Shown: positions 33,209 through 54,061, counted from the first letter of the stretch. The stretch is DNA of 64,000 nucleotides from Syntrophales bacterium (GCA_036725345.1 DAIMEJ010000003.1:25553-89552); one strand, 5' to 3'. Notes: generated by a model from the letters alone, not told the origin. Numbers and translations are program-made.

Positions 33209-33346
33209 ATTGGAGGGCTTGCTTCAATATTTGTAAGTATTTTATATTTTTCAGGTTTCAAAAAAAAGGCAAGCCGGTGAAAATTGATTGATAATGGTAT
33301 GAATTCACTCACCATTCTTGTTTTGCCCCGTCTTTTATCCGGGACA

Positions 33347-33362
33347 TGGCATGGTTCATGCT
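33347..33362 (+). promoter_or_regulatory. Putative sigma-54 promoter of the major pilin gene
   Basis: TGGCATG-GTTC-ATGCT with correct GG/GC spacing, between the EBP gene and pilA. Confidence 0.65.
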
Positions 33363-33615
33363 GATTCGATGCTCTGACGGCGTCCAAAAGTCGCTGAAAA
33401 TCAAGGATGTAGTGACAGGTTCTTTTATAACATAGCTATCGCGGGCAGATTTTTTGTTACGGGTTGCCTAAAATCCTACCGTGACACGGACCTTAAGGGC
33501 ATGTCTCTCCCGCGTAGGAGATAAAAAGGTTCTTTAGAGGATGGCGTTTGGTGGTTCTCGAGAAAAGGAATTCTAATAATAAATGGTGAATAAACGAGTT
33601 TCAAGGAGGTTTCAG

Positions 33616-34002
33616 ATGCGTAGTCAAATGCTCATCAAAAATCAGAAAGGTTTCACGCTGATCGAGATCATCGCCGTTCTCGTGATCCTCGGGATCCTGG
33701 CTGCCGTCGCCATCCCGAAGTACTTCAGCCTGCAGGAAGAGGCCAAGATCAGAGCGGCGGTGGGGGCCGTGGCCGAGGGTAAAGCCAGGGTCACCCAGTA
33801 TGGTGCCCAGGAGCTTCTGAAAAACAGCAGGTGGCCTGGCTTAGATAGTTACACCAACGCTGCCCTCGGAACCGGTGCTGGTGATTTTACGCTGTCTTTT
33901 TCTCGTGATGGAAGCGACATCGTTGTTAAGGCAATAGGAAGAGCTGCACCTGTTGCAGGTACCAGCACGAGCGGCAAAATCAGGCCGCCGACCGGAAGCT
34001 AA
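33616..34002 (+). CDS. pilA: Major type IVa pilin
   Basis: QKG/FTLIEIIAVLVILGILAAVAIPKY class III signal; AAGGAGG SD; own promoter and strong terminator; 116-aa mature chain. Confidence 0.88.
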   Translation: MRSQMLIKNQKGFTLIEIIAVLVILGILAAVAIPKYFSLQEEAKIRAAVGAVAEGKARVTQYGAQELLKNSRWPGLDSYTNAALGTGAGDFTLSFSRDGSDIVVKAIGRAAPVAGTSTSGKIRPPTGS

Positions 34003-36488: not shown

Positions 36489-36493
36489 CGGGA

Positions 36494-38572: not shown

Positions 38573-38587
38573 TAATTTGGATACAAT

Positions 38588-39541: not shown

Positions 39542-40263
39542 CCCGTATCCTCGTCCTTTCGCACCTTCGCGGTTAAAAAAGCCGCGTGCCTTGGATCGAG
39601 TTTCGCGATTCCGGACGGCAGGGGAAAGTACCCGGAACCCTCAAGGCGGACCACTTTAAAGCCGTGAACCTCGAAGACGTCCCTGAGTCCGCGGTAGCCG
39701 AAAACCCGGTGGTGTTGCCAGCTCTTCGGGTTCGTCGCCGCTTCTCCATGATGAATGGCCAGTGGATTTCCAATTTGAAAACGCCTGCCGGAGATGTTGG
39801 ACAGGGAGAAAGGCTGCCACCCCAGGATGAGTGCGAAAATGTTGTGCCAGCTGCAGAGGTTTTCCGTGCACACAATCGCGTACCCCCCCGTCTTCAGGAC
39901 CCTGCGAATCTCCGCGATGAAATGGTCCGTGTCCGTGATGTGCTCGATGACCTGATTTGCGTGGAGGACGTCAAACGTGTTATCGGAAAACGGAAAGGCA
40001 TCGTTGAGGTCCGCCTGCCTGGCGTCGATCCCCCGTTGAAGGGCCAGGGCCCGTCTTTCCTCCACCACCTCGATGCCGAACAGTCGCGCTTTCCCCAGGC
40101 GGCTTCCCAGTTGCAGGGTCCACTCGCCGTCATCGCAGCCGCAGTCGAGGAGGAGCGCCGGGTCCGATGCGGGCTCGAGGCAGTCAAGGATGCACGTCCT
40201 GTAGTCCTCGACGGCGGCCTGCCGCATTTTATGCATTGCTCTTCTGACGGCTTCTCTCATCAT
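39538..40263 (-). CDS. Class I SAM-dependent methyltransferase
   Basis: LLDCGCDDG, GIE, ADLN, FDVLHANQVIEH, RVLKTGG; 4-nt overlap with next gene. Confidence 0.88.
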   Translation of the reverse strand: MMREAVRRAMHKMRQAAVEDYRTCILDCLEPASDPALLLDCGCDDGEWTLQLGSRLGKARLFGIEVVEERRALALQRGIDARQADLNDAFPFSDNTFDVLHANQVIEHITDTDHFIAEIRRVLKTGGYAIVCTENLCSWHNIFALILGWQPFSLSNISGRRFQIGNPLAIHHGEAATNPKSWQHHRVFGYRGLRDVFEVHGFKVVRLEGSGYFPLPSGIAKLDPRHAAFLTAKVRKDEDTG

Positions 40264-40296
40264 AAAACGCTGACGGGCCCGACCCCGTGAAGACCT

Positions 40297-41019
40297 TCAA
40301 GCACCGGGTGATGGGCCCGCTCCTTTCGTCAGCGGCCGGTGGGAGACCGCGATGCCGAGGCGTGAAACAAAAAAGTCACCTGCGGACGGGAGGTCCTTTA
40401 TCTTCCCTTCGATCACCCGCAACAGGGGGATGCAGGTTTCATAACGAATGACGTCTGTTGTCTGCAAGCCATGGCGTTCCACGAGGCGACGGTATTCCTC
40501 TTCGGTCCGCACGCCGACATGACCCGTCGTTTGCCTGAGGAGTCGGTTTCCGTGCTTCAGGCGCTCGATCCAGTGGCTTCGGCAGGGCGTAAAAAAAACG
40601 AATGTACCGTGCGTCCTGAGGAGCCGGGCCGCCTCTGAAAGAGCGCCTGCGAGGTGATCGTCCGAGAGGTGCTCCAGCACGTCGATGGCGATGATCTTGT
40701 CAAAGCTGTGATCATCGAAGAGGGTCAGCGAACAGATGTCCGCGACGGCGTATTGCACGTTATCCGGTGCTCCCATGGAACGGGCTTTTTCGATGGCGGC
40801 CGGCGAAAAATCCACACCGGCCACTTTTCGAACGCGGCCGGCGAGCCATCTCGTGTAATGGCCGCTGCCGCACCCGAGCTCCAGGACATCGTCCGCCGGC
40901 CCCGGCATGCAGAGCCTCTCGATCGTCTGCAGGCGTTGACGCTCCCGGAAGGCGTTATTGCCGAAGAGGCCGGGCCTGTTCAGCTTCTCGTAGTAGGCGC
41001 TGTCGTAAAGCGGTTTCAT
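40297..41019 (-). CDS. Class I SAM-dependent methyltransferase
   Basis: VLELGCGSG, GVDFS, ADI, FDKIIAIDVLEHL, LLRTHG; ATGA overlap with upstream GT2. Confidence 0.88.
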   Translation of the reverse strand: MKPLYDSAYYEKLNRPGLFGNNAFRERQRLQTIERLCMPGPADDVLELGCGSGHYTRWLAGRVRKVAGVDFSPAAIEKARSMGAPDNVQYAVADICSLTLFDDHSFDKIIAIDVLEHLSDDHLAGALSEAARLLRTHGTFVFFTPCRSHWIERLKHGNRLLRQTTGHVGVRTEEEYRRLVERHGLQTTDVIRYETCIPLLRVIEGKIKDLPSAGDFFVSRLGIAVSHRPLTKGAGPSPGA

Positions 41020-41996
41020 GAGTTTGATCCCGTCCCCCTGACCCATCCCGTCACCTGCCACTTCAGGATCCCGAGGCCGAAGGACAATACGACGGCAGGC
41101 AGACAAAAACCGACCACGAGGAGGTCCCTCCACGTCCTGCTCAGGTAGACAACCAGGCAGAGGAACCCCAGGGCCAGACCGGTCAGCACGGGGCCTTTCA
41201 GCACGGGCGAAAAAATGACCGCTGCCAGTGATAAAAGGATGAGGAACCAGATCAGAAGATAGAGGAAGAAGTATTTTCCTCCCGGGCGAAGATAGTAGTC
41301 GGCAAACCGGGGTCCGCGCTCGTACGTGTGAATCATGACGTCCCGGAAATCCGTCCTCGGCCGGTAGGTCACGCAAGCGGCATGGGTCTTCAGGATCGGC
41401 CGTTCCCCGACGATTTGTCTCAGGATCCGGGTATCGTCGTTGGTGTAACGGTCGATCTCGGGCAATTGACTTTTCAGCCACAGGGTGCGGTCGCAGATGA
41501 AATTTGTCGTTCCCTTCGGGACGCTGTCGAAATTATCGGGGGTGATGAAATATTCTTCGGTTTTATTCATGGTGTGGTAGTACTTCGAGTAGAGCCTGCA
41601 TCTGAGAAGATGAAAAAACCTGGCGAAGCCCCAGGGGCTCCCGTCATAAGCGTCGACGGCCGGCAGAAGGGGCTCGTAGTTTCGGCTGTGCACCTTCGCG
41701 AGCAGGTCCAACTCCGGGATGACCCGCGCATCGTTGAAGATCAGGGTTTCGAACCGGGCGGCCCGGGCGCCGGTGTTCCGCGCTACAATGCGGCCCTCGT
41801 TGGACTCCAGGTTGATCAAACGGACAGGGTAAGAGGCGGTAATCCGGGGCGTGGCGTCCGTCGAGCCGTCATTCACCACGATCACTTCGAACTGCTCCCG
41901 CGGGTAGGTTTGACCGACGAGCGCCTCCAGGCAGGTGCCGAGGGTATCCGCGCCGTTGAAAACGGGGACGATAATGGAGAAATTTTCAAGGCTCAT
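41016..41996 (-). CDS. Glycosyltransferase family 2 with C-terminal TM helices
   Basis: SIIVPVFN, VVNDGSTD, ARNTG, FNDAR (DxD region), DD-containing NDDTRI; hydrophobic C-term. Confidence 0.85.
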   Translation of the reverse strand: MSLENFSIIVPVFNGADTLGTCLEALVGQTYPREQFEVIVVNDGSTDATPRITASYPVRLINLESNEGRIVARNTGARAARFETLIFNDARVIPELDLLAKVHSRNYEPLLPAVDAYDGSPWGFARFFHLLRCRLYSKYYHTMNKTEEYFITPDNFDSVPKGTTNFICDRTLWLKSQLPEIDRYTNDDTRILRQIVGERPILKTHAACVTYRPRTDFRDVMIHTYERGPRFADYYLRPGGKYFFLYLLIWFLILLSLAAVIFSPVLKGPVLTGLALGFLCLVVYLSRTWRDLLVVGFCLPAVVLSFGLGILKWQVTGWVRGTGSNS

Positions 41997-42010
41997 CGCA
42001 CCTGACGCCT

Positions 42011-43105
42011 TCAGGCATAGGGTATAAGGTGGTCGACAATCACTTCGGACGGGTGGAGATCCTCAAAACGAGACCCGCTGCCGCGCCTCAGGGTGGGGAA
42101 GGAGCGCAAGAAATAGTCGACCTTCCCATCGTGGAAGCCGGCCAGAAAGACGTTGGTCCCCAGGCCTTCCGTCCGCTCGGTCCTGGCCCTCATGACGAGA
42201 CAGGGAATGTCGAGGTAATAGCTTTCCTCCTGGATGCTCCCCCCGTCCGTGACTATGAAATCGGCGCCGGCCAGCATGTCGAGGAACGTCAGATAAGGCT
42301 GTATGGGCATCAGTTCAATAGACGGGAGGTTCTCGAGTTTCGCGTAGAGGCCCCTGCGGACGAGCTGCTGTCGCGTCGGTTCATGGAGGACGAAGAGAAC
42401 CCTCCGTTCGCGTCCGATTCGTTCCAGAAGAGCGACGACGGTCTCGAGCCGGGACCTGGAGTATATCGTCTCCACCCTGTGGAGGGTGGCGACGACATAG
42501 GACCCGGCGGGCCGTGTCCCGCTGGTACGCGAGGCGGCAAAGCGAAGGGTGTCGACGATTGTATTGCCGCCGGCATGAATGGTTTTTCCCTCGAGATGCA
42601 TTTTCCTCAGGTTTTCACAGGCCCATTCCGAAGGGGCAAAAAGAATGTCGCTGTAACGCATGACGATGAGACGGATCATCTCCTCGGGGAAAGGGTCCAG
42701 GAGGTCAAAACTCCGGAGGCCAGCCTCCACGTGGGCCACCTTGATGCCGCAGCGCCTGGCGAAAAGAAGCGACAGCAGGGTGGTCATGGTGTCACCGTGA
42801 ATGAGGCAGACTCCCTTTTCGCCCCGGAAAACGTTTCTTCGGATGCCCTCCAGCCTCAACGCCGCACGACCGAGGCTCGCCCCCGTCCATGCGAGAGCCT
42901 CGGAGAGCCGGGTGATGCTCGTTTTTTCTCCCCGGAGACGGATGTCGGGCTCACGCAACCCGAAGGGTTCGATGAGGTCGCCGGTGATTCCCGCATGCTG
43001 CCCCGTGTCGATGAAGTTGAAGTGAACGGCCCGTCGATCCAGTTCACGCATGATGGGGGCCATCTTGATGAACTGGGCCTTCGTGCCGATCATGATGTGG
43101 ATCAT
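42011..43105 (-). CDS. UDP-N-acetylglucosamine 2-epimerase family protein (divergent, non-hydrolysing WecB-like)
   Basis: GTKAQFIKMAP, TGQH, HGDT, HVEAGLRS, PEE, TLHR, TDGGSIQEE. Confidence 0.82.
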   Translation of the reverse strand: MIHIMIGTKAQFIKMAPIMRELDRRAVHFNFIDTGQHAGITGDLIEPFGLREPDIRLRGEKTSITRLSEALAWTGASLGRAALRLEGIRRNVFRGEKGVCLIHGDTMTTLLSLLFARRCGIKVAHVEAGLRSFDLLDPFPEEMIRLIVMRYSDILFAPSEWACENLRKMHLEGKTIHAGGNTIVDTLRFAASRTSGTRPAGSYVVATLHRVETIYSRSRLETVVALLERIGRERRVLFVLHEPTRQQLVRRGLYAKLENLPSIELMPIQPYLTFLDMLAGADFIVTDGGSIQEESYYLDIPCLVMRARTERTEGLGTNVFLAGFHDGKVDYFLRSFPTLRRGSGSRFEDLHPSEVIVDHLIPYA

Positions 43106-43130
43106 AGGGACTATTCCCCAGTTCGAAAGC

Positions 43131-44075
43131 TCAGCCCTCCGGGGGCACGGGGCCCCTGCCCTCGCTGCGGTCGAAGCGCAGCTGCGCGACCTGTTCCGAG
43201 ACGAGGCCGACCATGAAGACCACGACGGCCATGGTCATCAGCATGGCGGAGGTGGGACCGTAGCGGCCGCCCAGGAAAAAGATCTTTACAAGACCCCAGG
43301 CGAATCCCGTGAGAAACATGGCGGCGCTGACGGGGATGAAAATTCTCAAGGGTGAAAACAGTGTGGCGATCTTCACGATGATCAGGAAAAACCTCGTACC
43401 GTCCCGCAGCAGCTTGATCTTGCTCCTCCCTTTTCGCTTCGCCGTCCGGATGGGGACGTAGGCCAGGCTGTGGCCGGAGCGGACAATGGCGAGCGTGATC
43501 GTCGTGGGGTAGGAAAAGGTGTTCGGAAGGAGGTAGACGAAGCGCCGCGCGATGACGGTCTTGATCGCCCGGAAGCCCGACGTCAGGTCTTCGATCTTCA
43601 TTCTGCAGATGTAGCTGGCGAAGAAGTTGTAGATCTTGTTGGCCGCATCCCTGTGAAGGCTCGTTTCCGAATCGTGTGTGCGCGCGCCCACGGCCATGTC
43701 GTAGGTCTCGAGCTTTTCGAGGAGCCGCGGGATGTCCTCGGGGTTGTGCTGCCCGTCGGCGTCGAGGATCACGAGGGCCTTTCCCCTGGCATTTCGAATG
43801 CCCGTTTTGACGGCGGCGCCGTTTCCGATGTTGTAGGGATGCGAAATCACCCGGGCGCCCGCCTGGCGGGCACTTTCGGCCGTTGCGTCGTGAGACCCGT
43901 CATCCACGACGATGATTTCATAGGACTGGTTTTGGCTGGCCATGACCTGTTGTATATTTGTTACAACCGTTGCAATTCCCTCCTTTTCGTTGTAGGCAGG
44001 AATGACGACGCTGACGGCCGGTATCGCATTTCTCGCTTCTGCTGCCAGGGAATGCATAATGGTCGTACTTTTCAT
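43131..44075 (-). CDS. Polyprenyl-phosphate glycosyltransferase (GT2, DPM1-like) with C-terminal TMs
   Basis: VVIPAYNE, VDDGSHD, GNGAAVKTG, LDADGQH, DLTSGFRA, SKIK; two TM at C-term. Confidence 0.88.
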   Translation of the reverse strand: MKSTTIMHSLAAEARNAIPAVSVVIPAYNEKEGIATVVTNIQQVMASQNQSYEIIVVDDGSHDATAESARQAGARVISHPYNIGNGAAVKTGIRNARGKALVILDADGQHNPEDIPRLLEKLETYDMAVGARTHDSETSLHRDAANKIYNFFASYICRMKIEDLTSGFRAIKTVIARRFVYLLPNTFSYPTTITLAIVRSGHSLAYVPIRTAKRKGRSKIKLLRDGTRFFLIIVKIATLFSPLRIFIPVSAAMFLTGFAWGLVKIFFLGGRYGPTSAMLMTMAVVVFMVGLVSEQVAQLRFDRSEGRGPVPPEG

Positions 44076-44160
44076 CAGGTCTATTACCCGTGGAAAAGGT
44101 AACAGGCGAACTGGGTTCCGTGATTCGGCAACTGCAATTTGACAATAATATTCAACTTAT

Positions 44161-44189: not shown

Positions 44190-44559
44190 GGCTTCCCGTA
44201 AAATGCAAGATAAAAAGATTAATGAAATTGAGGATGTTCAACCGACGCAGGGCGCGTTTAAAAGCTTTTTCCGGAGTCAAAAAACCCTTGTCCGCTCAGA
44301 AGGGGCCATCTGGCGAGCATGGTGGGTAAGTAGTTAAATTTATGTGTAAATCATTGACTTTTGGTAATGTTTTTGCTCATCATCGAAGGGGGGCCCTTCA
44401 CCTCCCCGGTACTCCGACAGGCCGCTCTTCCGCTCGAGGGCTTTTTGTTCTGATTCACAGGGCTGAGGCATCGGCAATTTTAACGGACGGGGGAGACCGA
44501 GAACAGTTAAAGGCCCTCCGGCTGAGCCCCCTGTGACTTTTACCCTCGTTGAGTTGTAT

Positions 44560-45276
44560 ATGAATTGGAAGGAACAAGACGAGATCATCTCGAGGGTGCT
44601 AAAGGGCGACCGAAACGCCTACACCCTGGTGGTCAATCGGTATAAAGGCCCGATCTTCAACCTGGCCTATCGCATGACAGGCAGTTATCACGATGCCGAT
44701 GATCTCACGCAGGAAACTTTTTTGAAGGCCTACACGGCCCTCGGGAAGTTCAAGAGAGACAGAAAATTTTTCACCTGGCTTTACACGATCAGCCTCAACC
44801 TGATCCGGAACCATCACAGGAGGGCAAAGCCGGTGTCGGATCCCATGGAGGCCCTGTGCAGCGGCGAACCCGGCAGCGATTTCGAAAACCCGGAGGGAAG
44901 CGCCATCCGGGGGGAGGAAATCAAGCGGCTCGACATCTGCATGCGCAGACTGGCCCCGGATGTCCGGGAAGCCGTTGTCCTGAGGTTTCACCAGGGGCTG
45001 TCCTTTGAGGACATCGCGACGGTGAGCGGATGCTCCCTGAGCGGGGCAAAAATGAAAGTATACAGGGGTCTCGAGAAGCTGAGACTCCTGATGGACGAGA
45101 CGATAGGGGAAAGAAACCGCCATGACGAAAGAGGCAGAAATGACCACGGCGAGGGAGCACCTGGAGAAACGCATGGAGAGGGCCCTACTGGAGGAGCTTT
45201 CGCCGGAGGAAAGAGCCCTTCTGGAGAAGGACCTGCAGGGGGCGCCCGAGCTCCTCGCGAAGTGGAGAGATCTTGA
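44560..45276 (+). CDS. ECF RNA polymerase sigma factor
   Basis: DADDLTQETFLKAY, FFTWLYTISLNL..NH (region 2); REAVVLRF..GLSFEDIA...GAKMKVYRGLEKLR (region 4). Confidence 0.9.
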   Translation: MNWKEQDEIISRVLKGDRNAYTLVVNRYKGPIFNLAYRMTGSYHDADDLTQETFLKAYTALGKFKRDRKFFTWLYTISLNLIRNHHRRAKPVSDPMEALCSGEPGSDFENPEGSAIRGEEIKRLDICMRRLAPDVREAVVLRFHQGLSFEDIATVSGCSLSGAKMKVYRGLEKLRLLMDETIGERNRHDERGRNDHGEGAPGETHGEGPTGGAFAGGKSPSGEGPAGGARAPREVERS

Positions 45277-45850
45277 GAATGTCGTCTCCCTGGCCCGGCT
45301 GACGCCGCGGGTCGAGCCGCCCGCCGATCTCGACGCGCGGGTCATGACCCGGATCGAATCGCTCGAGCCGGCCCTCTGGACCCGCGTCAGGGCATTCCTC
45401 CTGCAGCCCGTCGACACGCGCATCGATTTCAAGAGGGCCTTCTCGGGTTCGGTGACAGGGAGCGAGTGTTCCTTCTACTTCATCATGGCCGGCCTTTATT
45501 TCCTGATCGTCGGCCTCATCCTGCTCTTCGGCCTCGGGAGGTTCGGCGGCGAGTGGCTGATGATGCGCTGGGTCAGGATGCAGCCCCACATCGCCCTCAC
45601 GACCGCCGCCTGGCTTGTCGTCCTGGGCATCTTCATCCTGAAGGACGGAGAGGTCGCGGCCAGGGTCGCCCGGATCGGGACCGTCGCCTACATCGCTCTT
45701 CTGATCCTGGATGCCGTGGCCATTCACATGACGGCGGGGTTCCCCCTCGCGCTTGTCTTTTTCTTCAGTTTCATAGGGACGGGCGTCGTGGCGGGGCTCT
45801 TCCTGGCAAAAATCATCTGGAACTACGGGAAAAACTATGCAGCCCTTTAG
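45122..45850 (+). CDS. Putative membrane anti-sigma factor
   Basis: N-terminal helical ASD-like segment (ELSPEERALLE...), VEPPADLDARVM, four C-terminal TM helices; directly after ECF sigma; start 45122 or 45140. Confidence 0.7.
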   Translation: MTKEAEMTTAREHLEKRMERALLEELSPEERALLEKDLQGAPELLAKWRDLENVVSLARLTPRVEPPADLDARVMTRIESLEPALWTRVRAFLLQPVDTRIDFKRAFSGSVTGSECSFYFIMAGLYFLIVGLILLFGLGRFGGEWLMMRWVRMQPHIALTTAAWLVVLGIFILKDGEVAARVARIGTVAYIALLILDAVAIHMTAGFPLALVFFFSFIGTGVVAGLFLAKIIWNYGKNYAAL

Positions 45851-46364
45851 ATTCAAAATGTCTCGACTGCCGGGGGGCAACAACCACGGCTTCACGATGA
45901 TCGAGGTCATCGCGGTCCTCCTCATCCTGGGGTTTCTCACCTTCACTGCTGTCTCGATGCTCTACCAGCCCGACAAGGTGGAGGTGCCGACGCAGATTGA
46001 AGTCCTGAAAAGCCACATCCGCTTTGCCCAGGCCGCGGCCCTGAACAGCAGCAATGACTGGGGCATCGAAGTCGATACAATCACAAGCACGACCTACGTT
46101 CTCTTCAAGATTCTGGACGATACGAGTCAAGATAAGACCTTTCCGGGGGAACAGTCCGAGACGGTGACCCTCCCCGCCGGTTTTACCCTGACATCCCCGG
46201 CTTCGGGTAATGTCCTCATTTTCGACACCTGGGGGGTTCCCTACGTAGGCACATCCAGGACCAAGCCGGACTCACCGGCAAGCACCGATCTCGTCTTCAC
46301 GCTTTCAAAGGGCGCCGAGAGCAAGACAGCCACGATCACGAAGAACACGGGGTATGTGCCATGA
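45837..46364 (+). CDS. Minor pilin (FimT/FimU-like)
   Basis: HG/FTMIEVIAVLLILG class III signal; FDTWGVP; Thr/Ser-rich. Confidence 0.85.
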   Translation: MQPFRFKMSRLPGGNNHGFTMIEVIAVLLILGFLTFTAVSMLYQPDKVEVPTQIEVLKSHIRFAQAAALNSSNDWGIEVDTITSTTYVLFKILDDTSQDKTFPGEQSETVTLPAGFTLTSPASGNVLIFDTWGVPYVGTSRTKPDSPASTDLVFTLSKGAESKTATITKNTGYVP

Positions 46365-46777
46365 TCGCTCAATGGAAAGGGGAGAAAAGACAGGGAGGAT
46401 TCACGCTCATCGAGGTGATCGTGACGATTATCGTCGCGTCCATCATGGGTGTTTTGCTCGTTCAGTTCATGGGGACGGCCATGTTCCGGAGCGGCGAGCC
46501 CCTTGTCCGCGTCCAGGACGTCTCGACGCTCAGGAACGTCCTCGAAAACATGACCTCCGACTACAAGTACCTGGCGGCCACGCGGGCCGATTTCCTATCC
46601 ACCTTCAAAGACCGGGTGGATACGGGGTATTACGGGACGGGCTACACGGCGACGACAAAATACATCGAATTCCCCACTGGGGGCGGGACGGAAATCGAGG
46701 ATTTTTCAGATCCCAAGCTTCTCAAGGTGACCGTTACGAAGGGAAACCAGAGCATTACAACGATTTTCGCCCGGTGA
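46361..46777 (+). CDS. Minor pilin (PilV-like)
   Basis: GG/FTLIEVIVTIIVASIMG class III signal; KVTVT C-terminal strand; 4-nt overlap with previous gene. Confidence 0.85.
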   Translation: MIAQWKGEKRQGGFTLIEVIVTIIVASIMGVLLVQFMGTAMFRSGEPLVRVQDVSTLRNVLENMTSDYKYLAATRADFLSTFKDRVDTGYYGTGYTATTKYIEFPTGGGTEIEDFSDPKLLKVTVTKGNQSITTIFAR

Positions 46778-46785: not shown

Positions 46786-49700
46786 ATGAAAATTACCGGC
46801 AGGTTCCGGGAGAAGCGAATGAAAAAACAGTCGGGTTTCACGCTCATCGAGATCATGGTCACGCTGGTCATCGTGGGGATCCTGGCGACGGTGGCCGGGA
46901 CAGGCCTCGTGGCTGGGATCAACGGCTACCTGAGCGCCAAGGAAAACGACGCGATGGCCCAGAAGGCGCAGCTTGCCATGGCGAGGCTGAGCAGGGAGCT
47001 TACGGAATTCACCGAGATCCGGAGTTCCTTTATAGACGGCCCCACGACGGATGCCATCATCGAGAGGCTTTCGGGAACAGACGCCTCGGCGGTGACAAGA
47101 ACCGTCGCCATCGGCCTCGACGGGCAATCCGTCAAGATCAAGGAAGACAGCGAGGGGACGTCGCCGGATTACACGACGGGCGATGTCCTCATCGACAATG
47201 TCAACAGTCTGAGCTTCACATACTACTGCGGTGCGATCGCCTGTCCGTCCGGCACCGACGACCTCCGGCTCCTGTCGGGAATCAGGATAAATCTCTCGCT
47301 GAATCGCCCCGATATCGGCCAGACGATCGACTTCTCGACGACCGTCCACCCCCGCAACATCGGCAGTATCGGGGGGCTGGATCCTGCGACCGCGACTTAT
47401 CCGGGCCAGTCCAGCTATACCCAATGCTTCGTGGCCACGGCAGCCTACGGGAGCTACAGCCACCCCATGGTACTTGTCCTTCGGGAGTTCAGGGACAGCC
47501 GGCTTGTTCATTCCGATTTGGGCAGGCGGTTTATCGAGGCCTATTACACTGTCGGCCCGTCCCTTGCCGTCCTTATTCAGGAAAAACCCTGGGTCTGCTT
47601 CCTTGTGCGCCTGGCCCTCGTGCCCGTTGTATGTCTCGCGTTTCTTCTGACCCATTTCCCGCTTGCCTTCCCGATCCTGATTGCCCTTTCGTGGATTGCC
47701 GCGAGGGCCATCACCCGTTCGAGGAGAGGGAATCCCATGAATCCAAAAACTACGCTGTCCAGTCAGAAGGGGGCCGTTCTGCTCGCCGTCGTGGTCACCA
47801 TGGTCATCTTCGCGTCCCTCGGGGCCGTGATGCTAAACCTCTTCACGACGTCCACACACAGCCAGTTCGTCGGCAACCTCTCCGTCCGCGCCTACTACCT
47901 CGCCGAGGCGGGCTACCGGTACGCGGCGAGTCAGTATCTCAATGCCACCGGTCTGACATCAAGGGATGCTGAGACCGCGCGCGAGACGGCACTAAAAAAC
48001 CTCCACAGTAAAGACTTCGTGAAAGACTTCGTGCTCGCAAACAATGAAGGCAAGTTCAGCCTCCAGGTCTACCCTTACTGGTACAAGGTGGACTCCACGG
48101 GCGGAAACCAGCTTGTGGCGAAGGTCATCGGCCAATACCCGCTTCCAAAATATGATGCTTCAGGAAAACCCAATTATGAGGAAGGAAGCTGGGTCCAGGT
48201 CAGGGACGCCGTCACGGGCAATTTTAAATACGCCCAGCTTCAGGGCGCGAACCCCGGCGCCTCGGGTGACAGCGCCAGGGTCGATTTCACCAAGTATCAG
48301 AACCAGACTTGGGACAGCTACCCCGTGAATTCCATCATCGTGCCCGTAGCCAAGACCCGGGAGAGCGGCGGCGTCGGCAACCAGACCGTCGGCCAGAACG
48401 GCGAATTGCTCCTCGAGGCTGCAAGCGGCTACAAAGCCTTCCCGCGATGGAACGGTGTTGTCTTAGTGTGGGATACTTCAGGAAATGAGAAAACCCTTGC
48501 CTACCGGGAACTCTACATGAATAGCGGTACCGGGACTTACAAGCTAAAGGGGATCACGGACCCGAACGCGGCCACGATGGCCAACGTTACCATCGCCCCC
48601 GGGACCTACGTCATCCTGGGGAAGTTCGTCCGCCTGAGCTCGAAGGGTGTCATCGGCTCCGGCCAGGCCATGGGGGCAAGCCGCAGGGTGGATTTCTATA
48701 TCCCCATGGGATATCTGGGGGGAGCTTCCTTTGCTTCGGTGGAAAAGCAGCTCGATTTCTCCGATCTTAATCGTGACTGGATAACGGGACCGCACTTTAC
48801 CCAAATCGGTTCGCAGGAAATCGTGACGATCGAAGGAAGCTCGGCCCTTCATGTCTCCCAGACATCTAACGCAGTCTATTATGGGAGCTGTTACTCCCGG
48901 CAGGAATTCGGCATCGGCCTGAACTGGGGACCGACGGGCGCGAATATCCCCTTCGACCAGGCCTGGCGGACTGCCGGAGGGTTCCTCAGCTACGATGTCC
49001 AGGTCAAGATGGCGCTCATCGACCCGAACGAACCCGATCCCGACGTCTACAAAAACGGCATCAGCTTCGCCCTGAACGAAAAGGGGGATTGCTACGGTAT
49101 CAGCCTCTACAGGCAGCATGCGACGGAGTATTACTGCGATGGCCTGCCCATTTACTACCCCTCAGAAATCAATGAATCTCTTCGGGGGGTCCCGCTAATC
49201 GACTTGTGGAGCAAATCGCTCTCCGGGACAGAGTATTTTGCGCCCAGTGTGGTGGTGAACACCCCCCGAGGAATGGGTACGATGTATGGCGGCGAGACAG
49301 CCAACTTCCCGCCCGAGGGGGTGGATTCAAAGGTCATCCAGATAACTTATTACCCCGAAACGGGAAGTAAGGTCCGCCTCCTAACTGACGGAGCACTTCC
49401 TGCACCCCTTGTGCCCAATCAGGAATACTGGGCCCGTGTCATCACAAAGAACACCATCAACTATCTCTATCTCTTCACGAGCCAATCAGCGGCGCACTGC
49501 CCATCGGTGGATGGTGTAAGAAACTGCTTCTGGCCCACGGACGGATCCTGGGTCAGGCTTACCGACAGCGGCACGGTAACCCACGAGATTCTATACGACG
49601 ACCCTGTACGGAGGGGTCTTGCTTATGCCTACCTGGCGAGTTCCTCGGCCAACACGGACTACACCCACCTCGTAAAAAGCCCGACAATGCAGTCGATGCG

Positions 49701-50580
49701 GAAGTGGGTCACTCTCGTGGTCCGCATGAAGGAGGCCCCGAGCCTTTATTACATGAACGGAGGAAACGCGAACCTCGACCGAATCCGCCTCGGGGACACC
49801 GTCTACACGACCTCCAGTTGCACAGCCGGAGGCATGGTGACGAACATCGCCCGGGTCGCCTGGGAGCCCGTCTACATGTACAGGGAGACCTACAAGACCT
49901 GGAACGGCACGGCGCGGGGGGCTTTGGTTCTCGACGTCCTCTTTGACTCGAACGGCAACAAGCGGCCCATCCTCTTCGACAAGGACACCTGCAGTGGGAA
50001 GCTGTTTGTGGGAACGCCGCCCAATGGTGTTCACCTGGCTACTATCCTAGAAGGAGCGCAGAACAACAGTGCCCATACGAAGGGCATATGGATCCAGGTC
50101 TTCGTCGCCGACCCCGATGAGGACACAACGCTGAAGTCTCCGAACACGAAAGCCTTCGACCAGACAACCTCCGGTGACGTCAACCGTAAGAAGGTGGAGC
50201 GCGGCGCCATCGTCTGGCCGCCCGACAACGTTTCGGTGAGCGGCGATTCCCACATCACCGAAGAAAACGACTATTTCACGATGCTTAAATGGGACACAAG
50301 ATGGTGGGAGTCCTCGTTAATCGATCGCTTCTATTCCGAATACAACGACTATGTGGGCGGAGAAAGTTCAGGTCCCGACACCATATGGATTCGTGCGGCC
50401 GGAGGAGCAATATTCAAAACCCCGGACAGCGGCACCTTCCCAACACCCGTGCAACGTCCGGAGGTGGGCTTGCACGCTCTAGGCACCTACAGTGTCTGGT
50501 CGTATTTCGACGACTTCGCCTTGAAGCTTGGTGGATACAAGGGAACAGTACAGGGCTTCACGCAGCCCTTCCAGCAGTAA
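46786..50580 (+). CDS. Composite 1264-aa protein: PilW-like prepilin + CFI-box-CTERM-like domain + TM + second PilX-like prepilin + large adhesin-like beta domain
   Basis: SG/FTLIEIMV at aa 17/18; CFVATAAYG...LREFRD...YY..GP..A at aa 214; basic linker; QKG/AVLLAVVVTMVIF at aa 329/330; internal ATG 47737 with GAGGAG SD; no stop codon in frame. Confidence 0.8.
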   Translation: MKITGRFREKRMKKQSGFTLIEIMVTLVIVGILATVAGTGLVAGINGYLSAKENDAMAQKAQLAMARLSRELTEFTEIRSSFIDGPTTDAIIERLSGTDASAVTRTVAIGLDGQSVKIKEDSEGTSPDYTTGDVLIDNVNSLSFTYYCGAIACPSGTDDLRLLSGIRINLSLNRPDIGQTIDFSTTVHPRNIGSIGGLDPATATYPGQSSYTQCFVATAAYGSYSHPMVLVLREFRDSRLVHSDLGRRFIEAYYTVGPSLAVLIQEKPWVCFLVRLALVPVVCLAFLLTHFPLAFPILIALSWIAARAITRSRRGNPMNPKTTLSSQKGAVLLAVVVTMVIFASLGAVMLNLFTTSTHSQFVGNLSVRAYYLAEAGYRYAASQYLNATGLTSRDAETARETALKNLHSKDFVKDFVLANNEGKFSLQVYPYWYKVDSTGGNQLVAKVIGQYPLPKYDASGKPNYEEGSWVQVRDAVTGNFKYAQLQGANPGASGDSARVDFTKYQNQTWDSYPVNSIIVPVAKTRESGGVGNQTVGQNGELLLEAASGYKAFPRWNGVVLVWDTSGNEKTLAYRELYMNSGTGTYKLKGITDPNAATMANVTIAPGTYVILGKFVRLSSKGVIGSGQAMGASRRVDFYIPMGYLGGASFASVEKQLDFSDLNRDWITGPHFTQIGSQEIVTIEGSSALHVSQTSNAVYYGSCYSRQEFGIGLNWGPTGANIPFDQAWRTAGGFLSYDVQVKMALIDPNEPDPDVYKNGISFALNEKGDCYGISLYRQHATEYYCDGLPIYYPSEINESLRGVPLIDLWSKSLSGTEYFAPSVVVNTPRGMGTMYGGETANFPPEGVDSKVIQITYYPETGSKVRLLTDGALPAPLVPNQEYWARVITKNTINYLYLFTSQSAAHCPSVDGVRNCFWPTDGSWVRLTDSGTVTHEILYDDPVRRGLAYAYLASSSANTDYTHLVKSPTMQSMRKWVTLVVRMKEAPSLYYMNGGNANLDRIRLGDTVYTTSSCTAGGMVTNIARVAWEPVYMYRETYKTWNGTARGALVLDVLFDSNGNKRPILFDKDTCSGKLFVGTPPNGVHLATILEGAQNNSAHTKGIWIQVFVADPDEDTTLKSPNTKAFDQTTSGDVNRKKVERGAIVWPPDNVSVSGDSHITEENDYFTMLKWDTRWWESSLIDRFYSEYNDYVGGESSGPDTIWIRAAGGAIFKTPDSGTFPTPVQRPEVGLHALGTYSVWSYFDDFALKLGGYKGTVQGFTQPFQQ

Positions 50581-50605
50581 CGGTCCCTGAAGAGAAAAAC
50601 CCGGA

Positions 50606-50642
50606 GGGGGACCCCTTGTGGCAGGGGTTCCCCTTCTTTTTG
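50606..50642 (+). terminator. Intrinsic terminator after minor pilin operon
   Basis: GGGGACCCCT-tgtggc-AGGGGTTCCCC then TTCTTTTT. Confidence 0.7.
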
Positions 50643-50680: not shown

Positions 50681-50715
50681 AAAAAACCGGGATACTGAAA
50701 CATCCCGGTTTTTTT
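50681..50715. terminator. Bidirectional intrinsic terminator
   Basis: AAAAAACCGGGAT-actgaaac-ATCCCGGTTTTTTT between convergent operons. Confidence 0.8.
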
Positions 50716-50745: not shown

Positions 50746-52137
50746 TCACTTCTGTCTGCCGAAGTTGCTGATCTGGGCGATGAGTTCGTCCACGGTGGCT
50801 TTTTCGTCGATAATGAGGTGCGGTCCCGTGCTCTCGACGGCATCCACCGCATCGCCAAAGTCCTTGCCGCCCGACATGTACTGGGCATCCCCCTTCCCGA
50901 GACCGTTGCCGTTATCCGGGTAGGCACGCTGGAAGACATCCGCACCGCTTCCGTTGCCGGGCAGGAACGGGGTGACAGTCGCCCCCCATCCTGCCGCCGA
51001 CGCGCGGGGGCTCCCCGAGTCGGTTTCCTGAACAAGCTGACCCTCCGGCCGGAAAGCGGCCGCGTCGCCGTCGATGAGCGGCGAGACATAGACGAGTTCC
51101 TGGGCGGCCTCGGCAGAGGGCTTGAAATTATCCGACGGTGGATAGAAGCTCGTGCGGGTCTGCAGGTATTCTTTCAGGTATCGCTCCATCGTGAACATGC
51201 CGTCGGCCTTGCCCATCTGGATGGCGCTCTCGATCTGGGGGATCTTGTTTTCTCGGATGATGCCCTTCACGGACTGGGTGCCCCGGGCGATGGAGAGCAT
51301 GGGCACCCTGTACCCAAGTCTTTCCATGAAGGTGAGCTGCTGGATGATGACCCACTGGAGGGCCGAGGCCAGCTGAAAGCGGATTTCCTCCTGAGCCTCC
51401 ACGGGAAAGGAGTTGCAAAGGCGGTAAAGGGCGTCCTCGGCATTCGTCGCGTGCAGAGAGGCGATGACCAGCTGCCCGGACTCGGCCGCGTTCAGGGTCA
51501 GGCGCATGACCTGAGGTTCGCGGAGCTCGCCCACGACGATGACATCGGGCGCCTCCCGAAGGACGTCGAGGAGACCCTGTTCGAAGGAAGGCATATGGGT
51601 ACCGAACTCGCGCTGCTCGATGAAGGAGTTCTTGGAAATGAAACGAAATTCGATGGGGTCTTCCAGTGTGACGATGTGGGCCGCCCGTGACCGGTTGATT
51701 TCGTCGACGAGGGCCGCGATGGTCGTCGATTTGCCGGCTCCCGCGGCGCCGCAGATCAGGATGAGCCCCGCCTTTATTCCTGCAATCTGTTGCAGGGAAG
51801 GATGGAGGTTCAGCTTTTCGATGCAGGGGACCGTGCCCGGCAGGAGGCGGATGGCAAGGCTCAAGCCCCGGGTCGTGTTGAATATGCTGACCCGGATCCG
51901 GACCTGCTGGATGCTCATGGCCAGATCGACGGACCAGCGCTGTCTCAGCGTGTTGAGCTGACGGGACGTGAGGATCTTTTTGACCAGGGCGTCCACTTCC
52001 CTGTGGTTCCACCGGCCGTTCTTGTCAAAGTGAACCTGGCCATTCTTCCTGAACACCAGGGGGCTGCCTCCCGTGATGTGAATATCGGAGTATTCATCAC
52101 GGACGGCTGCATCTATGACTTTACTGAACTTGTTCAT
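50746..52137 (-). CDS. pilT: PilT/PilU family retraction ATPase with long C-terminal extension (paralog 1)
   Basis: SDIHITGG, GAAGAGKSTT, TLEDPIEF, PDVIVVGELRE, SLHAT, KGIIRENK; AGGAGG SD. Confidence 0.88.
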   Translation of the reverse strand: MNKFSKVIDAAVRDEYSDIHITGGSPLVFRKNGQVHFDKNGRWNHREVDALVKKILTSRQLNTLRQRWSVDLAMSIQQVRIRVSIFNTTRGLSLAIRLLPGTVPCIEKLNLHPSLQQIAGIKAGLILICGAAGAGKSTTIAALVDEINRSRAAHIVTLEDPIEFRFISKNSFIEQREFGTHMPSFEQGLLDVLREAPDVIVVGELREPQVMRLTLNAAESGQLVIASLHATNAEDALYRLCNSFPVEAQEEIRFQLASALQWVIIQQLTFMERLGYRVPMLSIARGTQSVKGIIRENKIPQIESAIQMGKADGMFTMERYLKEYLQTRTSFYPPSDNFKPSAEAAQELVYVSPLIDGDAAAFRPEGQLVQETDSGSPRASAAGWGATVTPFLPGNGSGADVFQRAYPDNGNGLGKGDAQYMSGGKDFGDAVDAVESTGPHLIIDEKATVDELIAQISNFGRQK

Positions 52138-52461
52138 GGCTACCCTCCTCCTGAAGGGCCAGAGCCGAAGATAGGATATGTAAAGTGAACTGTTCCCTCT
52201 CTTTTTATCGGCAGGAAATGAAAAGACCTTAACAATTCGAGCATTTTTCATGCCAGGCATTTTTCACGGCCCAAAAGAAAAAGCTCCTGTTTTTGAGTTG
52301 TTAGAGCCTTTCTCTGAGAAGGGCTATTTTATCCCTGAAGGATATTTGACGGGTTTACTGAAATTTGATTTGAAAATTGTAAAAAGAATGGGTCGGCCGG
52401 CGGACAGAAAGGGGAGGAAGCGCCGCAAGGAGGTTTTTAACCCTTTGAATCGATATGGGAT

Positions 52462-53709
52462 TTATTTTTTGACCTTTCTCAGGTTCTCGAGCTGGGATAT
52501 CAGCTCATCGACCGTCGCTTTTTCGTCAAGACTGTGGACGTGCCCTTCGAGGCCGTATTCGGCGTGCTGACCCTGGAAGACGGCGGGCTTCGCCTCGTGG
52601 GCGGGTATGGGTCTCCGGGGTTTCGGCATGCCTCCGTCCAGGTCAATGAGGGGCGAGATGTAGATGGCGTCCTGGCTGATCTCCGGTGAGGGCCGGAAGT
52701 TCTCCGACGGAGGCACGAATTTTTTCTTGGTGCCGATGAAGTCCCGCAGGTATCGCTCCATCGTGAACATGCCGTCGGCCTTGCCCATCTGGATGGCGCT
52801 TTCAATCTGAAAGATCTTGTTTTCGCGGATCAGCCCCTTGACGGCCTGGGTGCCGCGGAGAATGGAAAGGACGGGAATCCTGAAGCCCAAGTCTTCCCGG
52901 AAGATGAGCTGTTGGATGACAATCCACTGCATGGCGGAGGCGATTTTGTTACGGATCTCCTCTTGGGCCTCGACGTGAAAGGAATTGCAGAGCCTGTAAA
53001 CGGCGTCTTCGGCGTTTGTGGCGTGGAGGGACGCGATGACGAGGTGACCCGATTCGGCAGCGTTCAGGGTCAGGCGCATGACCTCCGGTTCCCTCAGCTC
53101 CCCGACGACGATGACATCCGGGTTTTCCCTCAGGACATCGAGGAGTCCTTTTTCGAAAGTAGGCACATGGGTCCCCAACTCCCGCTGCTCGATGAAGGAC
53201 ATCTTGGAGAGGTAGCGGTACTCGATGGGGTCCTCGAGGGTCACGATGTGGGTTGACCGGCTGCGGTTGATCTCGCCGATGATCGCCGCGATCGTCGTCG
53301 ACTTGCCGGAACCGGTGGCCCCGCAGACCAGGACGAGACCGGCCTTCATACCGGCGATTGACTCCAGGGAGGGGTGCAGGTTGAGCTTTTCTATCGAGGG
53401 GATTGTTCCCGGAAGGAGCCGGATGGCGAGGCTCAGGCCCCGGGTGGTGTTGAAGACGTTCAACCGGAGCCGCACGCCGTGAACGCTGAGCGCCAGATCC
53501 GATGACCATTCCCTGGCGAGCTTACGGAGTTGGTTGGGTGTGAGGATCTTCCGCACGAGTGTGTCCACTTCCTGGGGCGTCCACCGCACGGAATCCTCGG
53601 CCTGTATACGGCCGTTTTTGCGGTAGACCATCGGGTGTCCGCCCGTCATGTGGACGTCGGAAAACCCTTCGCGGACAGCGGCGGCTATGATGGCGGTGAA
53701 CTTTTTCAT
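52462..53709 (-). CDS. pilT: PilT/PilU family retraction ATPase with C-terminal extension (paralog 2)
   Basis: SDVHMTGG, GATGSGKSTT, TLEDPIEY, PDVIVVGELRE, GHLVIASLHAT, KGLIRENK. Confidence 0.88.
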   Translation of the reverse strand: MKKFTAIIAAAVREGFSDVHMTGGHPMVYRKNGRIQAEDSVRWTPQEVDTLVRKILTPNQLRKLAREWSSDLALSVHGVRLRLNVFNTTRGLSLAIRLLPGTIPSIEKLNLHPSLESIAGMKAGLVLVCGATGSGKSTTIAAIIGEINRSRSTHIVTLEDPIEYRYLSKMSFIEQRELGTHVPTFEKGLLDVLRENPDVIVVGELREPEVMRLTLNAAESGHLVIASLHATNAEDAVYRLCNSFHVEAQEEIRNKIASAMQWIVIQQLIFREDLGFRIPVLSILRGTQAVKGLIRENKIFQIESAIQMGKADGMFTMERYLRDFIGTKKKFVPPSENFRPSPEISQDAIYISPLIDLDGGMPKPRRPIPAHEAKPAVFQGQHAEYGLEGHVHSLDEKATVDELISQLENLRKVKK

Positions 53710-53878: not shown

Positions 53879-54061
53879 CTATTTCAAACGCGGGTCGACG
53901 CCCTTGAATCCGCATTCCGGCGCGTAGCACGTCACGTTCCTGAAGAGGCACTTCTGCCGGCAGGAGGGGCACTGTTCCGGAAGTGCATCCCCCCCGAAGG
54001 TGTACCCGCAATTCTCGCACTTCCAGAAGGTCTCCGGAAGGTCGTTTTTTTTCTCCGACAT
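53879..54061 (-). CDS. Rubredoxin-like small metal-binding protein (RCKP-type)
   Basis: WKCENCGY...PEQCPSC...[14 protein letters not shown]; AAAGGGG SD. Confidence 0.8.

Follow-up and report, generated by a model that had tools for sequence, protein, structure and literature searches.

A type IV pilus locus of a Syntrophales bacterium contains a gene that appears to encode two pilus subunits in one reading frame. We propose that its product is a natural tandem prepilin, a precursor with three membrane helices that would be cut by prepilin peptidase at two sites and so give rise to two pilus-tip subunits; based on the sequence, we give this reading a probability of roughly 0.6. The gene occupies positions 46786-50580 on the plus strand of the window, the 64,000-nucleotide stretch of DNA that was analyzed. 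To our knowledge, every description of type IV pilins and pseudopilins presents them as separate small proteins that each carry an N-terminal class III signal of their own. A literature search found no prior description of a pilin polyprotein, in agreement with an earlier sequence-only reading of this DNA, and this route, in which pilus parts are made within a single precursor, appears not to have been described.

The frame of 1264 codons runs without a break from the ATG at 46786 to the TGA at 50578-50580, just as the sequence-only reading had placed it, and the upstream limit of the stop-free frame (46249-46354) lies before this ATG. A second ATG at 46819, which would give the leader MKKQSG|F, may be the true start; most relatives have a leader of 5-6 residues, and in one database entry the protein is 1253 aa long. 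Gene calls on at least 24 independently assembled contigs (ENA, NCBI, JGI, and Logan assemblies) give exactly this 1264-aa protein, and the occurrence of the fused ORF is far above chance. Its parts are, in order, a GspJ/PilW-like pilin (module 1), a CFI-box-CTERM domain with an anchor helix, a 20-aa basic loop, a second pilin-type helix, and a 935-aa all-beta ectodomain (module 2). The periplasmic domain, hydrophobic segment and basic linker listed in the earlier reading are thus present, but they had not been recognized as a complete CFI-box-CTERM domain, and the hydrophobic segment (residues ~268-306) is about 39 aa long, not about 30.

The minor-pilin operon starts with a GspH/FimU-like gene (45837-46364, plus strand) that matches N_methyl and, weakly, GspH; the ComGD and typeII_sec_gspH models stay below their cutoffs, and the position of the gene is conserved in relatives. 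Next is a PilV/GspI-like minor pilin gene (46361-46777, plus strand; N_methyl, TIGR02532, and a weak type_IV_pilV match) with the site G|FTLIE, including Glu5. A terminator-like hairpin closes the operon (50603-50636, plus strand), 23 nt past the stop codon, with a 14-bp stem (9 GC pairs) followed by a T-run. Directly upstream of the operon are genes for an ECF sigma factor and a conserved membrane protein (44533-45850, plus strand; Sigma70_r2/r4 matches on homologous genes), a gene order that also occurs in loci L003, L004, L019, and L020. The membrane protein has no Pfam match and is a possible anti-sigma factor.

The fused gene belongs to a larger pilus locus. A set of machine genes (22397-34002, plus strand) encodes a PilM-like protein (PilM_2), a secretin (Secretin), an AAA_22 ATPase, an MshE/PilB-type ATPase (T2SSE and MshEN), a PilC/GspF protein (T2SSF), a sigma54 activator (Sigma54_activat), and a major pilin (33583-34002, plus strand; N_methyl), and this machine would use the pilins described here. 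Two tandem PilT-like ATPase genes (50746-53709, minus strand; T2SSE Pfam matches) are convergent with the fused gene. No prepilin peptidase gene was found in the 64-kb window.

All features within the fused gene are given on the plus strand. Leader 1 (residues 1-17, 46786-46836) is short and basic, ends in Gly17, and precedes a hydrophobic helix with Glu22 at +5 of the class III site G17|F18, the prepilin pattern that had been read from the sequence. Residues 12-37 match Pfam N_methyl (5e-10) and TIGR02532 (2e-8), and the signal KKQSG17|FTLIE22 scores 38.9 bits (cutoff 21.2) and 33.6 bits (cutoff 16.3) with these models, respectively. The AF2 model of module 1 (46837-47361; pLDDT 76.8) has a pilin fold, with alpha1 at residues 20-73 and beta-sheet strands within residues 75-187, and its top PDB matches are pilin and pseudopilin structures. 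Best among them are the EpsJ chains of 2RET and 3CFI (Foldseek E 9e-5 to 4e-4, probability 1.0, TM-score 0.60-0.63 relative to target), which bears out the assignment to the PilW/GspJ class. A fragment of one homologue is named "PulJ/GspJ family protein" by NCBI. With 13-15.6 bits, the module does not reach the cutoff of the gspJ equivalog model TIGR01711 (64.85), and we regard it as GspJ-like by modeled fold and by position, not as an equivalog. A tether of low model confidence follows (residues 193-213, 47362-47424; pLDDT below 50 at residues 193-212) and is probably flexible.

The CFI-box-CTERM domain (residues 214-282, 47425-47631) begins at the invariant Cys214 (CFVATAAYG) and matches all of NF041770 (81.8 bits, cutoff 40, model positions 1-69 of 69). 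The same model was matched by 46 of 46 tested relatives, with C214, F215, T218, A219, R236, and D237 invariant. CFI-box-CTERM is a sorting-signal-like unit that, as its name indicates, is normally found at the end of a protein. It does stand at the C-terminus in split relatives (gene 1 of L017, 313 aa; P0068; P0069; P0074), whereas 982 residues follow it in the window protein. The unit has the layout of tripartite C-terminal sorting signals, with the invariant Cys motif, a hydrophobic stretch (268-306), and then a basic cluster, RAITRSRRG; it differs from them in being internal and in an extra helical domain of ~50 residues. Where relatives lack the full CFI-box, a minimal form (CF[IV]xTA, a helix, and Arg/Lys) is found in 34 of 39, against a background of 3.9%. 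A search for a processing enzyme of CFI-box-CTERM and for literature on the domain found neither, and the motif with its invariant Cys may mark an extra processing step.

The hydrophobic anchor at the end of this domain (residues 268-306, 47587-47703) is predicted to span the membrane in the outside-to-inside direction. The conserved anchor domain has an AF2 pLDDT of 90-95. In the window protein, the ~39 hydrophobic residues are modeled as two helices (268-290 and 294-314); if these formed a two-pass hairpin, the topology would be inverted. We discount such a hairpin because the second helix has only about 13 hydrophobic residues and because relatives without the full CFI-box have a single helix of 17-20 aa at this position.

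The anchor is followed by a basic loop (residues 307-329, 47704-47772; RAITRSRRGNPMNPKTTLSSQKG) that ends in Q-K-G329 and would double as leader 2. As the sequence-only reading had noted, the loop is basic: its last 20 residues hold five Lys/Arg and no Asp/Glu, and across the family it has a median length of 18 aa with about five Lys/Arg and less than one Asp/Glu. Charge and hydropathy suggest that it is cytoplasmic. The earlier argument that the chain returns the second site to the cytoplasmic face therefore holds, given the basic loop and the single-helix relatives. Prepilin peptidase cuts after the -1 Gly at this face of the membrane.

The putative internal prepilin peptidase site, G329|A330 (47770-47775), has the sequence QKG329|AVLLA334, with Ala at +5, and leads into a hydrophobic helix of 23 residues. 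Every one of 127 sequences keeps the Gly (fused 68/68 and 39/39, split 20/20), within the context Q-[RK]-G|[SA]-[VI]-L and Gly/Ala at +5, which is the same in fused and split forms. When a 29-position profile of this site was compared with 485 window ORFs, the top four non-self matches were the four genuine prepilin N-termini, which all line up with it at the -1 Gly: the major pilin (E 3e-6), the PilV-like pilin, module 1, and the GspH-like pilin. This second class III signal without Glu5, proposed earlier, is therefore pilin-like, and we predict that prepilin peptidase cuts there. The N_methyl, TIGR02532, PilX_N, and GspK models recognize neither site 2 nor the body of module 2. No case is known to us in which a prepilin peptidase cuts behind a "leader" of 329 residues that holds two membrane helices.

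A Shine-Dalgarno sequence, GAGGAG (47722-47727), and an in-frame ATG at 47737 (Met318) lie within the loop (47722-47739). Both had been pointed out before; they are real and are conserved across the clade of the window protein (L007-L015), where module 2 could probably also be made separately from Met318.

Module 2 comprises 935 residues from A330 to the C-terminus, in accord with the ~935 aa of adhesin-like sequence described earlier. It starts with a 60-residue alpha1-type helix (AF2 helix 327-386; feature 330-386, 47773-47943) with a hydrophobic N-terminal half (hydropathy peak 330-352) and continues in a body of ~880 aa (47944-50577), modeled as an all-beta, multidomain, adhesin-like ectodomain (pLDDT 74.7, pTM 0.60). 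The GspK-family signature is lack of Glu5, largest size among the minor pilins, and a place at the 3' end of the cluster (PMC5207764). Module 2 has a -1 Gly after a basic leader, lacks Glu5, is the largest, and ends the cluster. The earlier view of a PilX/GspK-like second pilin thus stands on signature and gene position, but not on sequence or fold: module 2 has no match in Pfam or NCBIfam (isolated N-terminal fragment included), no sequence match in the PDB by single sequence or profile, and no GspK/PilX fold match by Foldseek (best E 1.6e-3, TM-score below 0.1). Some relatives carry MAM-like, FG-GAP, or CBM5/12 domains.

Among 150 sequences (the window protein and the best 149 family representatives, with at most 50% mutual identity), 107 have the fused architecture. 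The ratio of 107 fused to ~17-22 split is biased toward fused, since a fused query gives higher scores to proteins with two modules. L007-L015, at 40-77% identity, keep an open frame, as do nine of the ten loci of the window's clade. Homologous loci, whose state had been proposed as a check, thus include many fused ones, and split versions also exist (L017, L022, and L023). L017, from the sister lineage of the window's clade, has an in-frame TGA 3 nt before the homologous ATG in three assemblies, at a codon that is CCA in L015. In L022 and L023, gene 1 lacks any anchor. In the split forms, the Gly of the module 2 leader is 7-30 residues from the free N-terminus. A Met occurs in the linker of only 26 of the 107 fused members; L019 (Smithella) lacks any ATG, GTG, or TTG over the 34 codons that precede the Gly, and L021 has only two GTGs, both within the anchor helix and neither with a Shine-Dalgarno sequence. 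Fusion is therefore obligate at these two distant loci, which have no usable internal start codon. A rough tree has the fused state at its root and about 10 changes between fused and split; this repeated interconversion argues that both forms give equivalent products.

We propose the following model for the tandem prepilin. Helix 1, the class III signal and alpha1 of the GspJ/PilW-like pilin, would leave the N-terminus inside and the pilin domain in the periplasm, and the terminal anchor helix of the CFI-box domain would bring the chain back to the cytoplasm. The Lys/Arg-rich loop ending in Q-K-G329 would then serve as leader for a second class III-type helix, which would return the 935-aa pilin, Glu5-less and in the GspK/PilX position, to the periplasm. 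Prepilin peptidase would cut at G17|F18 and G329|A330, so that the fused precursor would give the same mature tip pilin as the separate gene of the split relatives. In the window's clade, the Shine-Dalgarno sequence and ATG of Met318 would probably add separately made module 2. The CFI motif (Cys, helix, and basic cluster) may signal one more cut, by which module 1 would be released from its anchor. If module 1 retained the C-terminal anchor, its exit from the membrane with the pilus tip would be difficult to explain, and this part of the model needs an extra protease. A fuller version, in which prepilin peptidase acts as a polyprotein processor together with an unknown CFI-Cys protease to leave two adjacent tip pilins at 1:1 and a discarded hairpin, is tentative. 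That the fusion enforces a 1:1 stoichiometry, as suggested earlier, is speculation.

The sequence-only reading had named an assembly error or one-off stop-loss as the main alternative. A single base change can abolish a stop codon and the relatives come mostly from metagenome assemblies, but the identical ORF is on contigs from different assemblers and projects, and the frame stays open down to 40% identity, in 107 diverged representatives, and in RefSeq isolate genomes (Nitratidesulfovibrio liaohensis WP_309542548.1 and Desulfobaculum WP_167941618.1). Conservation is also strong in both halves (59% identity to L007 across the whole protein). These observations refute an assembly error or one-off stop-loss, and a chimera, sequencing error, or recently inactivated pseudogene is highly improbable. 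A pair of ordinary genes with a dispensable stop, started at 46786 or 46819 and at Met318 (47737), would explain why the Shine-Dalgarno sequence and ATG are kept across the window's clade and why the TGA of L017 precedes that very ATG; read-through would then be a tolerated or degraded by-product that has no function itself. However, without a stop codon each ribosome on module 1 continues into module 2, and fusion is thus the default product of gene 1. The open frame across nearly all of the clade and the fused root of the rough tree also speak against this reading. Since outgroups are fused and lack an internal start, a fused precursor must work in this family, and we consider two independent genes improbable.

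A permanently fused, three-helix inner-membrane protein, uncut at G329, is unlikely, though somewhat less so than the pair of genes. Its two periplasmic pilin-like domains would not travel on the filament but act at the machine's base, for instance as a platform for priming or nucleation. Most of the family is obligately fused, the highly conserved anchor looks made for staying in the membrane, and site 2 is missed by every standard pilin model, all of which would fit such a protein. An uncut loop, however, leaves the universal Gly and its Q-[RK] context, shared with split forms, without a reason, and the repeated fused-to-split transitions, including those with an anchor-less gene 1 (L022 and L023), suggest that tethering is not required. 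We therefore prefer the tandem prepilin that is cut at both sites.

The tandem prepilin resembles the type II secretion tip of GspI-GspJ-GspK (EpsI/EpsJ, 2RET and 3CFI) in operon order (H-like, I-like, J-like, and a large last subunit), in the EpsJ fold of module 1, and in the GspK-family signature of module 2 (PMC5207764). Unlike that tip, the J and K positions are one polypeptide here, joined by the anchor helix and the predicted cytoplasmic loop; module 2 has an all-beta body that lacks a GspK sequence or fold match; and the machine in the window resembles an MSHA/T4a-type pilus with PilT-like ATPases rather than a T2SS. In type IVa pili, PilY1 is a separate, non-pilin protein. The FimU-PilV-PilW-PilX set with PilY1 (P. 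aeruginosa; M. xanthus, PMC7541494) likewise combines four or five minor pilins with a large adhesin that is encoded with them, and is considered to prime assembly and to be located at the tip. Unlike in these complexes, the large ectodomain here is grafted on a pilin in the PilX position, itself fused to a PilW-like pilin, and the PilY1, PilX_N, and PilW family models do not match the fused protein. Pilins with an extended C-terminus also have an alpha1 helix and a pilin domain that bears large modules for adhesion or assembly initiation. Those that we know of have one N-terminal class III signal, and none has been described with a second internal site after a complete pilin. In concept only, and without homology, the precursor resembles the flavivirus polyproteins, membrane polyproteins that are resolved by membrane proteases, among them signal peptidase: alternating transmembrane segments place each cleavage site facing its protease. 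The two cases differ in protease, in membrane side, and in biology.

The fused layout is a widespread natural family in which a pilin and an anchor helix precede a predicted cytoplasmic loop and a second, invariant prepilin-type site. Proteins of this family that are annotated as "type II secretion system proteins" of 1000-1300 aa should be treated with caution, as they appear to be two pilus subunits in one frame. The orphan CFI-box-CTERM domain gains a defined context in which its processing enzyme can be sought. If the precursor is cut, prepilin peptidases act deep inside a multi-pass protein and their known substrate range would be wider; if it is uncut, tip subunits work tethered in the membrane and the picture of priming complexes would change. 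Both outcomes are directly testable because cultured sulfate reducers (Nitratidesulfovibrio liaohensis and Desulfobaculum) carry fused genes. If the fuller version with both proteases is true, the family would reveal an unrecognized biogenesis route for pilus tip complexes and a first role for the orphan CFI-box signal.

An anchor helix and a basic loop join two pilin-type modules in this locus, in a fusion that is real, conserved, and, across the family, often obligate. The fused gene runs from ATG 46786 to TGA 50578-50580 on the forward strand as a single frame of 1264 codons without interruption, as a sequence-only reading had proposed. A prepilin N-terminal methylation motif occupies residues 12-37 (Pfam N_methyl, 5e-10; TIGR02532, 2e-8), bearing out the proposed first cleavage site at G17/F18 with Glu22 at +5. 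The hydropathy of the 1264-aa product gives three hydrophobic segments (18-40, ~268-306, and 330-352), and the basic linker described by that reading is present, with five Lys/Arg and no acidic residues in the 20 residues preceding G329. The internal GAGGAG (47722-47727) and in-frame ATG (47737, Met318) that it reported were also found. A second ATG at 46819 gives the leader MKKQSG/F and may be the actual start of the gene, because leaders of 5-6 residues predominate among the relatives and one database entry gives the protein a length of 1253 aa.

The region between the modules had been described as a hydrophobic segment and a linker; both are there, but the region is not an anonymous spacer. 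Residues 214-282 match the CFI-box-CTERM domain (NCBIfam NF041770) at 81.8 bits (cutoff 40), covering model positions 1-69 of 69. The normal place of this domain is the end of a protein. In a predicted model of residues 1-470 (46 sequences, pLDDT 76.8), module 1 is a classical pilin with a helix at 20-73 and a sheet at 75-187, followed by a low-confidence tether (193-212). The CFI-box appears as a helical unit (pLDDT 90-95) with hydrophobic helices 268-290 and 294-314 at its end; a short loop then leads to a second pilin-style helix of 60 residues (327-386) that runs into beta-strands. The top PDB matches of module 1 are the EpsJ/GspJ chains of 2RET and 3CFI (E 9e-5 to 4e-4, probability 1.0, TM-score 0.60-0.63 relative to the target), and the next is the Thermus pilin-like protein TTHA1219.

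Module 2 starts with an invariant Gly in a prepilin-like context. The standard models of Pfam and NCBIfam do not recognize this second site. When a 29-position profile of the site and its helix was run against the 485 six-frame ORFs of the window, the top four non-self matches were exactly the window's four genuine prepilin N-termini: the major pilin (E 3e-6), the PilV-like protein, module 1, and the GspH-like protein, each with its -1 Gly aligned on G329. The residue aligned with G329 is Gly in all covering sequences (68/68, 39/39, and 20/20), and the context across the family is Q-[RK]-G/[SA]-[VI]-L-[IV]-[GA]-L-I, with Gly or Ala at +5, not Glu. The GspK family is marked by being the sole minor pilin without Glu5, by a size much larger than the others, and by its place at the 3′ end of the cluster (PMC5207764); module 2 likewise lacks Glu5, is far larger, and lies at the cluster's 3′ end. 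The earlier proposal of a second class III signal without E5, as in PilX/GspK, thus stands for the site and the GspK signature and fails for a PilX_N or GspK family match. Module 2 has no sequence or structure match to PilX_N, GspK, PilY1, or MshQ, so we do not assign it to any of them.

Modelled alone, module 2 is predicted to have an N-terminal helix and then an all-beta multidomain body (pLDDT 74.7, pTM 0.60). Comparison of this model with the PDB gave no significant structure neighbors; neither the single sequence nor a profile found sequence relatives in the PDB, and searches of Pfam and NCBIfam returned no family. The body would fit a surface adhesin, given that MAM-like, FG-GAP, CBM5/12, or 'choice-of-anchor J' domains are present in some relatives.

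An assembly error or a stop-loss mutation had been named as the main alternative to a genuine fusion, and the data contradict it. At least 24 contigs (32 blocks in the index) carry a called gene for exactly this 1264-aa product; they come from ENA, NCBI (GCA_029561395.1), JGI, and Logan assemblies, and the gene neighborhood is the same in each. The frame is open across relatives, and cultured isolates also carry the fused gene: Nitratidesulfovibrio liaohensis, on a 4.3-Mb contig (WP_309542548.1), and Desulfobaculum (WP_167941618.1). We therefore reject assembly error, a pseudogene, and a single stop-loss. NCBI names an N-terminal fragment of the N. liaohensis protein 'PulJ/GspJ family protein'; other database names are generic, e.g., 'type II secretion system protein'.

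Whether homologous loci are fused or split was checked within the window's own clade, represented, at 40-77% identity, by L007 from a Syntrophales MAG and by ten loci from metagenomes (L008-L018). One open frame crosses the junction in all nine window-like loci that span it, including L015 at 40% identity, and conservation along the protein peaks at the junction. The exception is the metagenome locus L017, which is split. Its gene 1 encodes 313 aa and ends ...CGT AAA GGA GTT TGA, followed by GCC ATG CTG AAA AAC CAG AGG GGC GCC GTC; gene 2 starts 3 bases past the gene 1 stop, in the same frame, with AAAGGAG ahead of it. The sister locus L015 has CCA at the position of this TGA. The split products of the L017 type, gene 1 and gene 2, each occur in three assemblies, which shows that a two-gene version of the locus is real and makes ATG 47737 a credible start site.

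Searched exhaustively with HMMER, 1.84 billion cluster representatives yielded 154 proteins at E <= 1e-30, and the best 149 of these, plus the window protein, were classed by alignment and local profiles; the profile of the second site and helix also matches the first pilin helix. Fused architectures comprise 68 proteins with pilin, CFI-box, anchor helix, and second site and 39 with pilin, short anchor helix, and second site, against 9 with gene 1 alone and 22 with gene 2 alone (a few evidently truncated fused genes), a fused-to-split ratio that is inflated because the fused query scores two-module proteins higher. There are also 11 fragments and one CFI-box protein with a long tail (P0065) that has no match to the second-site profile and in whose tail the same site is visible. 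The curated CFI-box model matched 46 of the 46 members tested.

The linker from anchor helix to Gly has a median of 18 residues, with ~5 Lys/Arg and <1 Asp/Glu, and contains any Met in only 26 of 107 fused members. At the DNA level, a Smithella locus (L019) is free of ATG, GTG, and TTG over the 34 codons ahead of the Gly. Another homologous locus (L021) offers just two GTGs, both within the anchor helix and neither with a Shine-Dalgarno sequence. For most of the family, the sequences thus leave the precursor as the only route to module 2.

In 34 of the 39 fused members without a full CFI-box, C-F-[IV]-x-T-A lies within 30 residues ahead of a single 17-20-residue helix, a placement with a background rate of 3.9%. 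Since this minimal form is kept, the conserved unit is the Cys motif, the predicted transmembrane helix, and the basic cluster. The same tripartite layout characterizes the Cys-containing C-terminal sorting signals described by Haft, for which cleavage by a CPBP/Rce1-type intramembrane protease was proposed (10.1101/2023.06.07.544157); that paper makes no mention of the CFI-box, and literature searches on the CFI-box found nothing relevant. Gene 1 of L017 keeps the whole CFI-box and helix. Two other split loci have no helix: gene 1 of L022 (2898-3479) ends '...PPTCFISTASN*', seven residues past the Cys, and gene 1 of L023 (1-525) ends directly past the pilin domain. These suggest that the GspJ-like module works without the anchor when encoded by its own gene. 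Only where topology demands it, to link two proteins that both insert N-terminus inside, is the helix found without exception. The L022 and L023 gene 1 products may naturally resemble what processing would leave of module 1. A rough neighbor-joining tree of the shared region (108 leaves) with parsimony places the fused state at the root with ~10 fused-to-split changes, a result we take to mean no more than several independent events.

Both the positive-inside rule and the relatives with a single anchor helix point to a cytoplasmic position for the loop before G329. With the extracytoplasmic-type domains in module 2 relatives, they also led us to reject a two-pass hairpin that would leave module 2 in the cytoplasm. 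We infer that prepilin peptidase cuts past G17 and past G329, which would yield the same mature products as split genes; speculatively, a cut near Cys214 could free module 1. The main difficulty for this mechanism is that an anchored module 1 would have to travel with the pilus tip, and one main rival is that the three-helix protein stays uncut and functions at the machine's base. The other main rival applies to the window's clade only, where two separately initiated products would be made and the read-through fusion tolerated. There the Shine-Dalgarno sequence and ATG are retained (window GAGGAGAGGGAATCCCATG, L007 GAAGGGAGGGAATCCCATG). Over the junction in this clade, the linker and leader vary at all three codon positions, a pattern that favors no reading. 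Under the processed-precursor reading, Met318 probably also initiates module 2 independently in this clade.

The fused gene is the last in an operon ordered ECF sigma factor, conserved membrane protein, GspH-like, PilV-like, fused gene, an order also kept in Smithella. A strong terminator hairpin lies past it (50603-50636). A second strong terminator-like hairpin (50681-50714) shares with the first the 165-nt gap before the convergent first PilT-like gene. The ECF sigma factor gene is followed by an apparently overlapping membrane protein gene (225-242 aa, no Pfam family; together 44533-45850, forward strand). In the window, L007, L017, and L019, this pair immediately precedes the minor-pilin genes, an arrangement that suggests the tip-pilin operon has its own regulation.

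The window also encodes a complete MSHA/T4a-like pilus machine on the forward strand (22397-34002), comprising a PilM_2-like protein (630 aa), secretin, AAA_22 ATPase (MshM/GspA-like), MshE/PilB-type ATPase (T2SSE + MshEN), PilC/GspF (T2SSF), sigma54 activator, and the major pilin (33583-34002, MLIKNQKG/FTLIE). A motif search of the 64-kb window found no A24 prepilin peptidase gene, a negative that holds for this stretch only. Between the major pilin gene and the minor-pilin operon, on the reverse strand, are two genes for large TPR-repeat proteins (738 and 692 aa; 34272-38572) and a block of glycosyltransferase, UDP-GlcNAc 2-epimerase, and methyltransferase genes (38400-44100). In L019 and L021 a block of this type lies next to the fused gene, and it may serve pilin glycosylation or a linked polysaccharide. 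Two tandem PilT-like T2SSE ATPase genes on the reverse strand (50746-52260 and 52462-53709) converge on the fused gene from downstream; both products have long C-terminal extensions with a common end motif (...IIDEKATVDELIAQISNFGRQK and ...SLDEKATVDELISQLENLRKVKK). A small Cys-rich ORF of 60 aa (CENCGY...CPSC; 53879-54061, reverse strand) has a counterpart annotated elsewhere as rubredoxin-like (Pfam RUBY_RBDX).

Literature searches on pilin polyproteins, tandem or fused pilins, and GspJ-GspK fusions found nothing relevant, in agreement with the sequence-only reading, which knew of no described pilin polyprotein. The literature searched contained modular pilins and tip complexes, but neither a naturally occurring tandem prepilin nor an internal site for prepilin peptidase. 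The components are of known kinds, and their arrangement appears to be undescribed. Because cultured species carry the fused gene, it is experimentally tractable.
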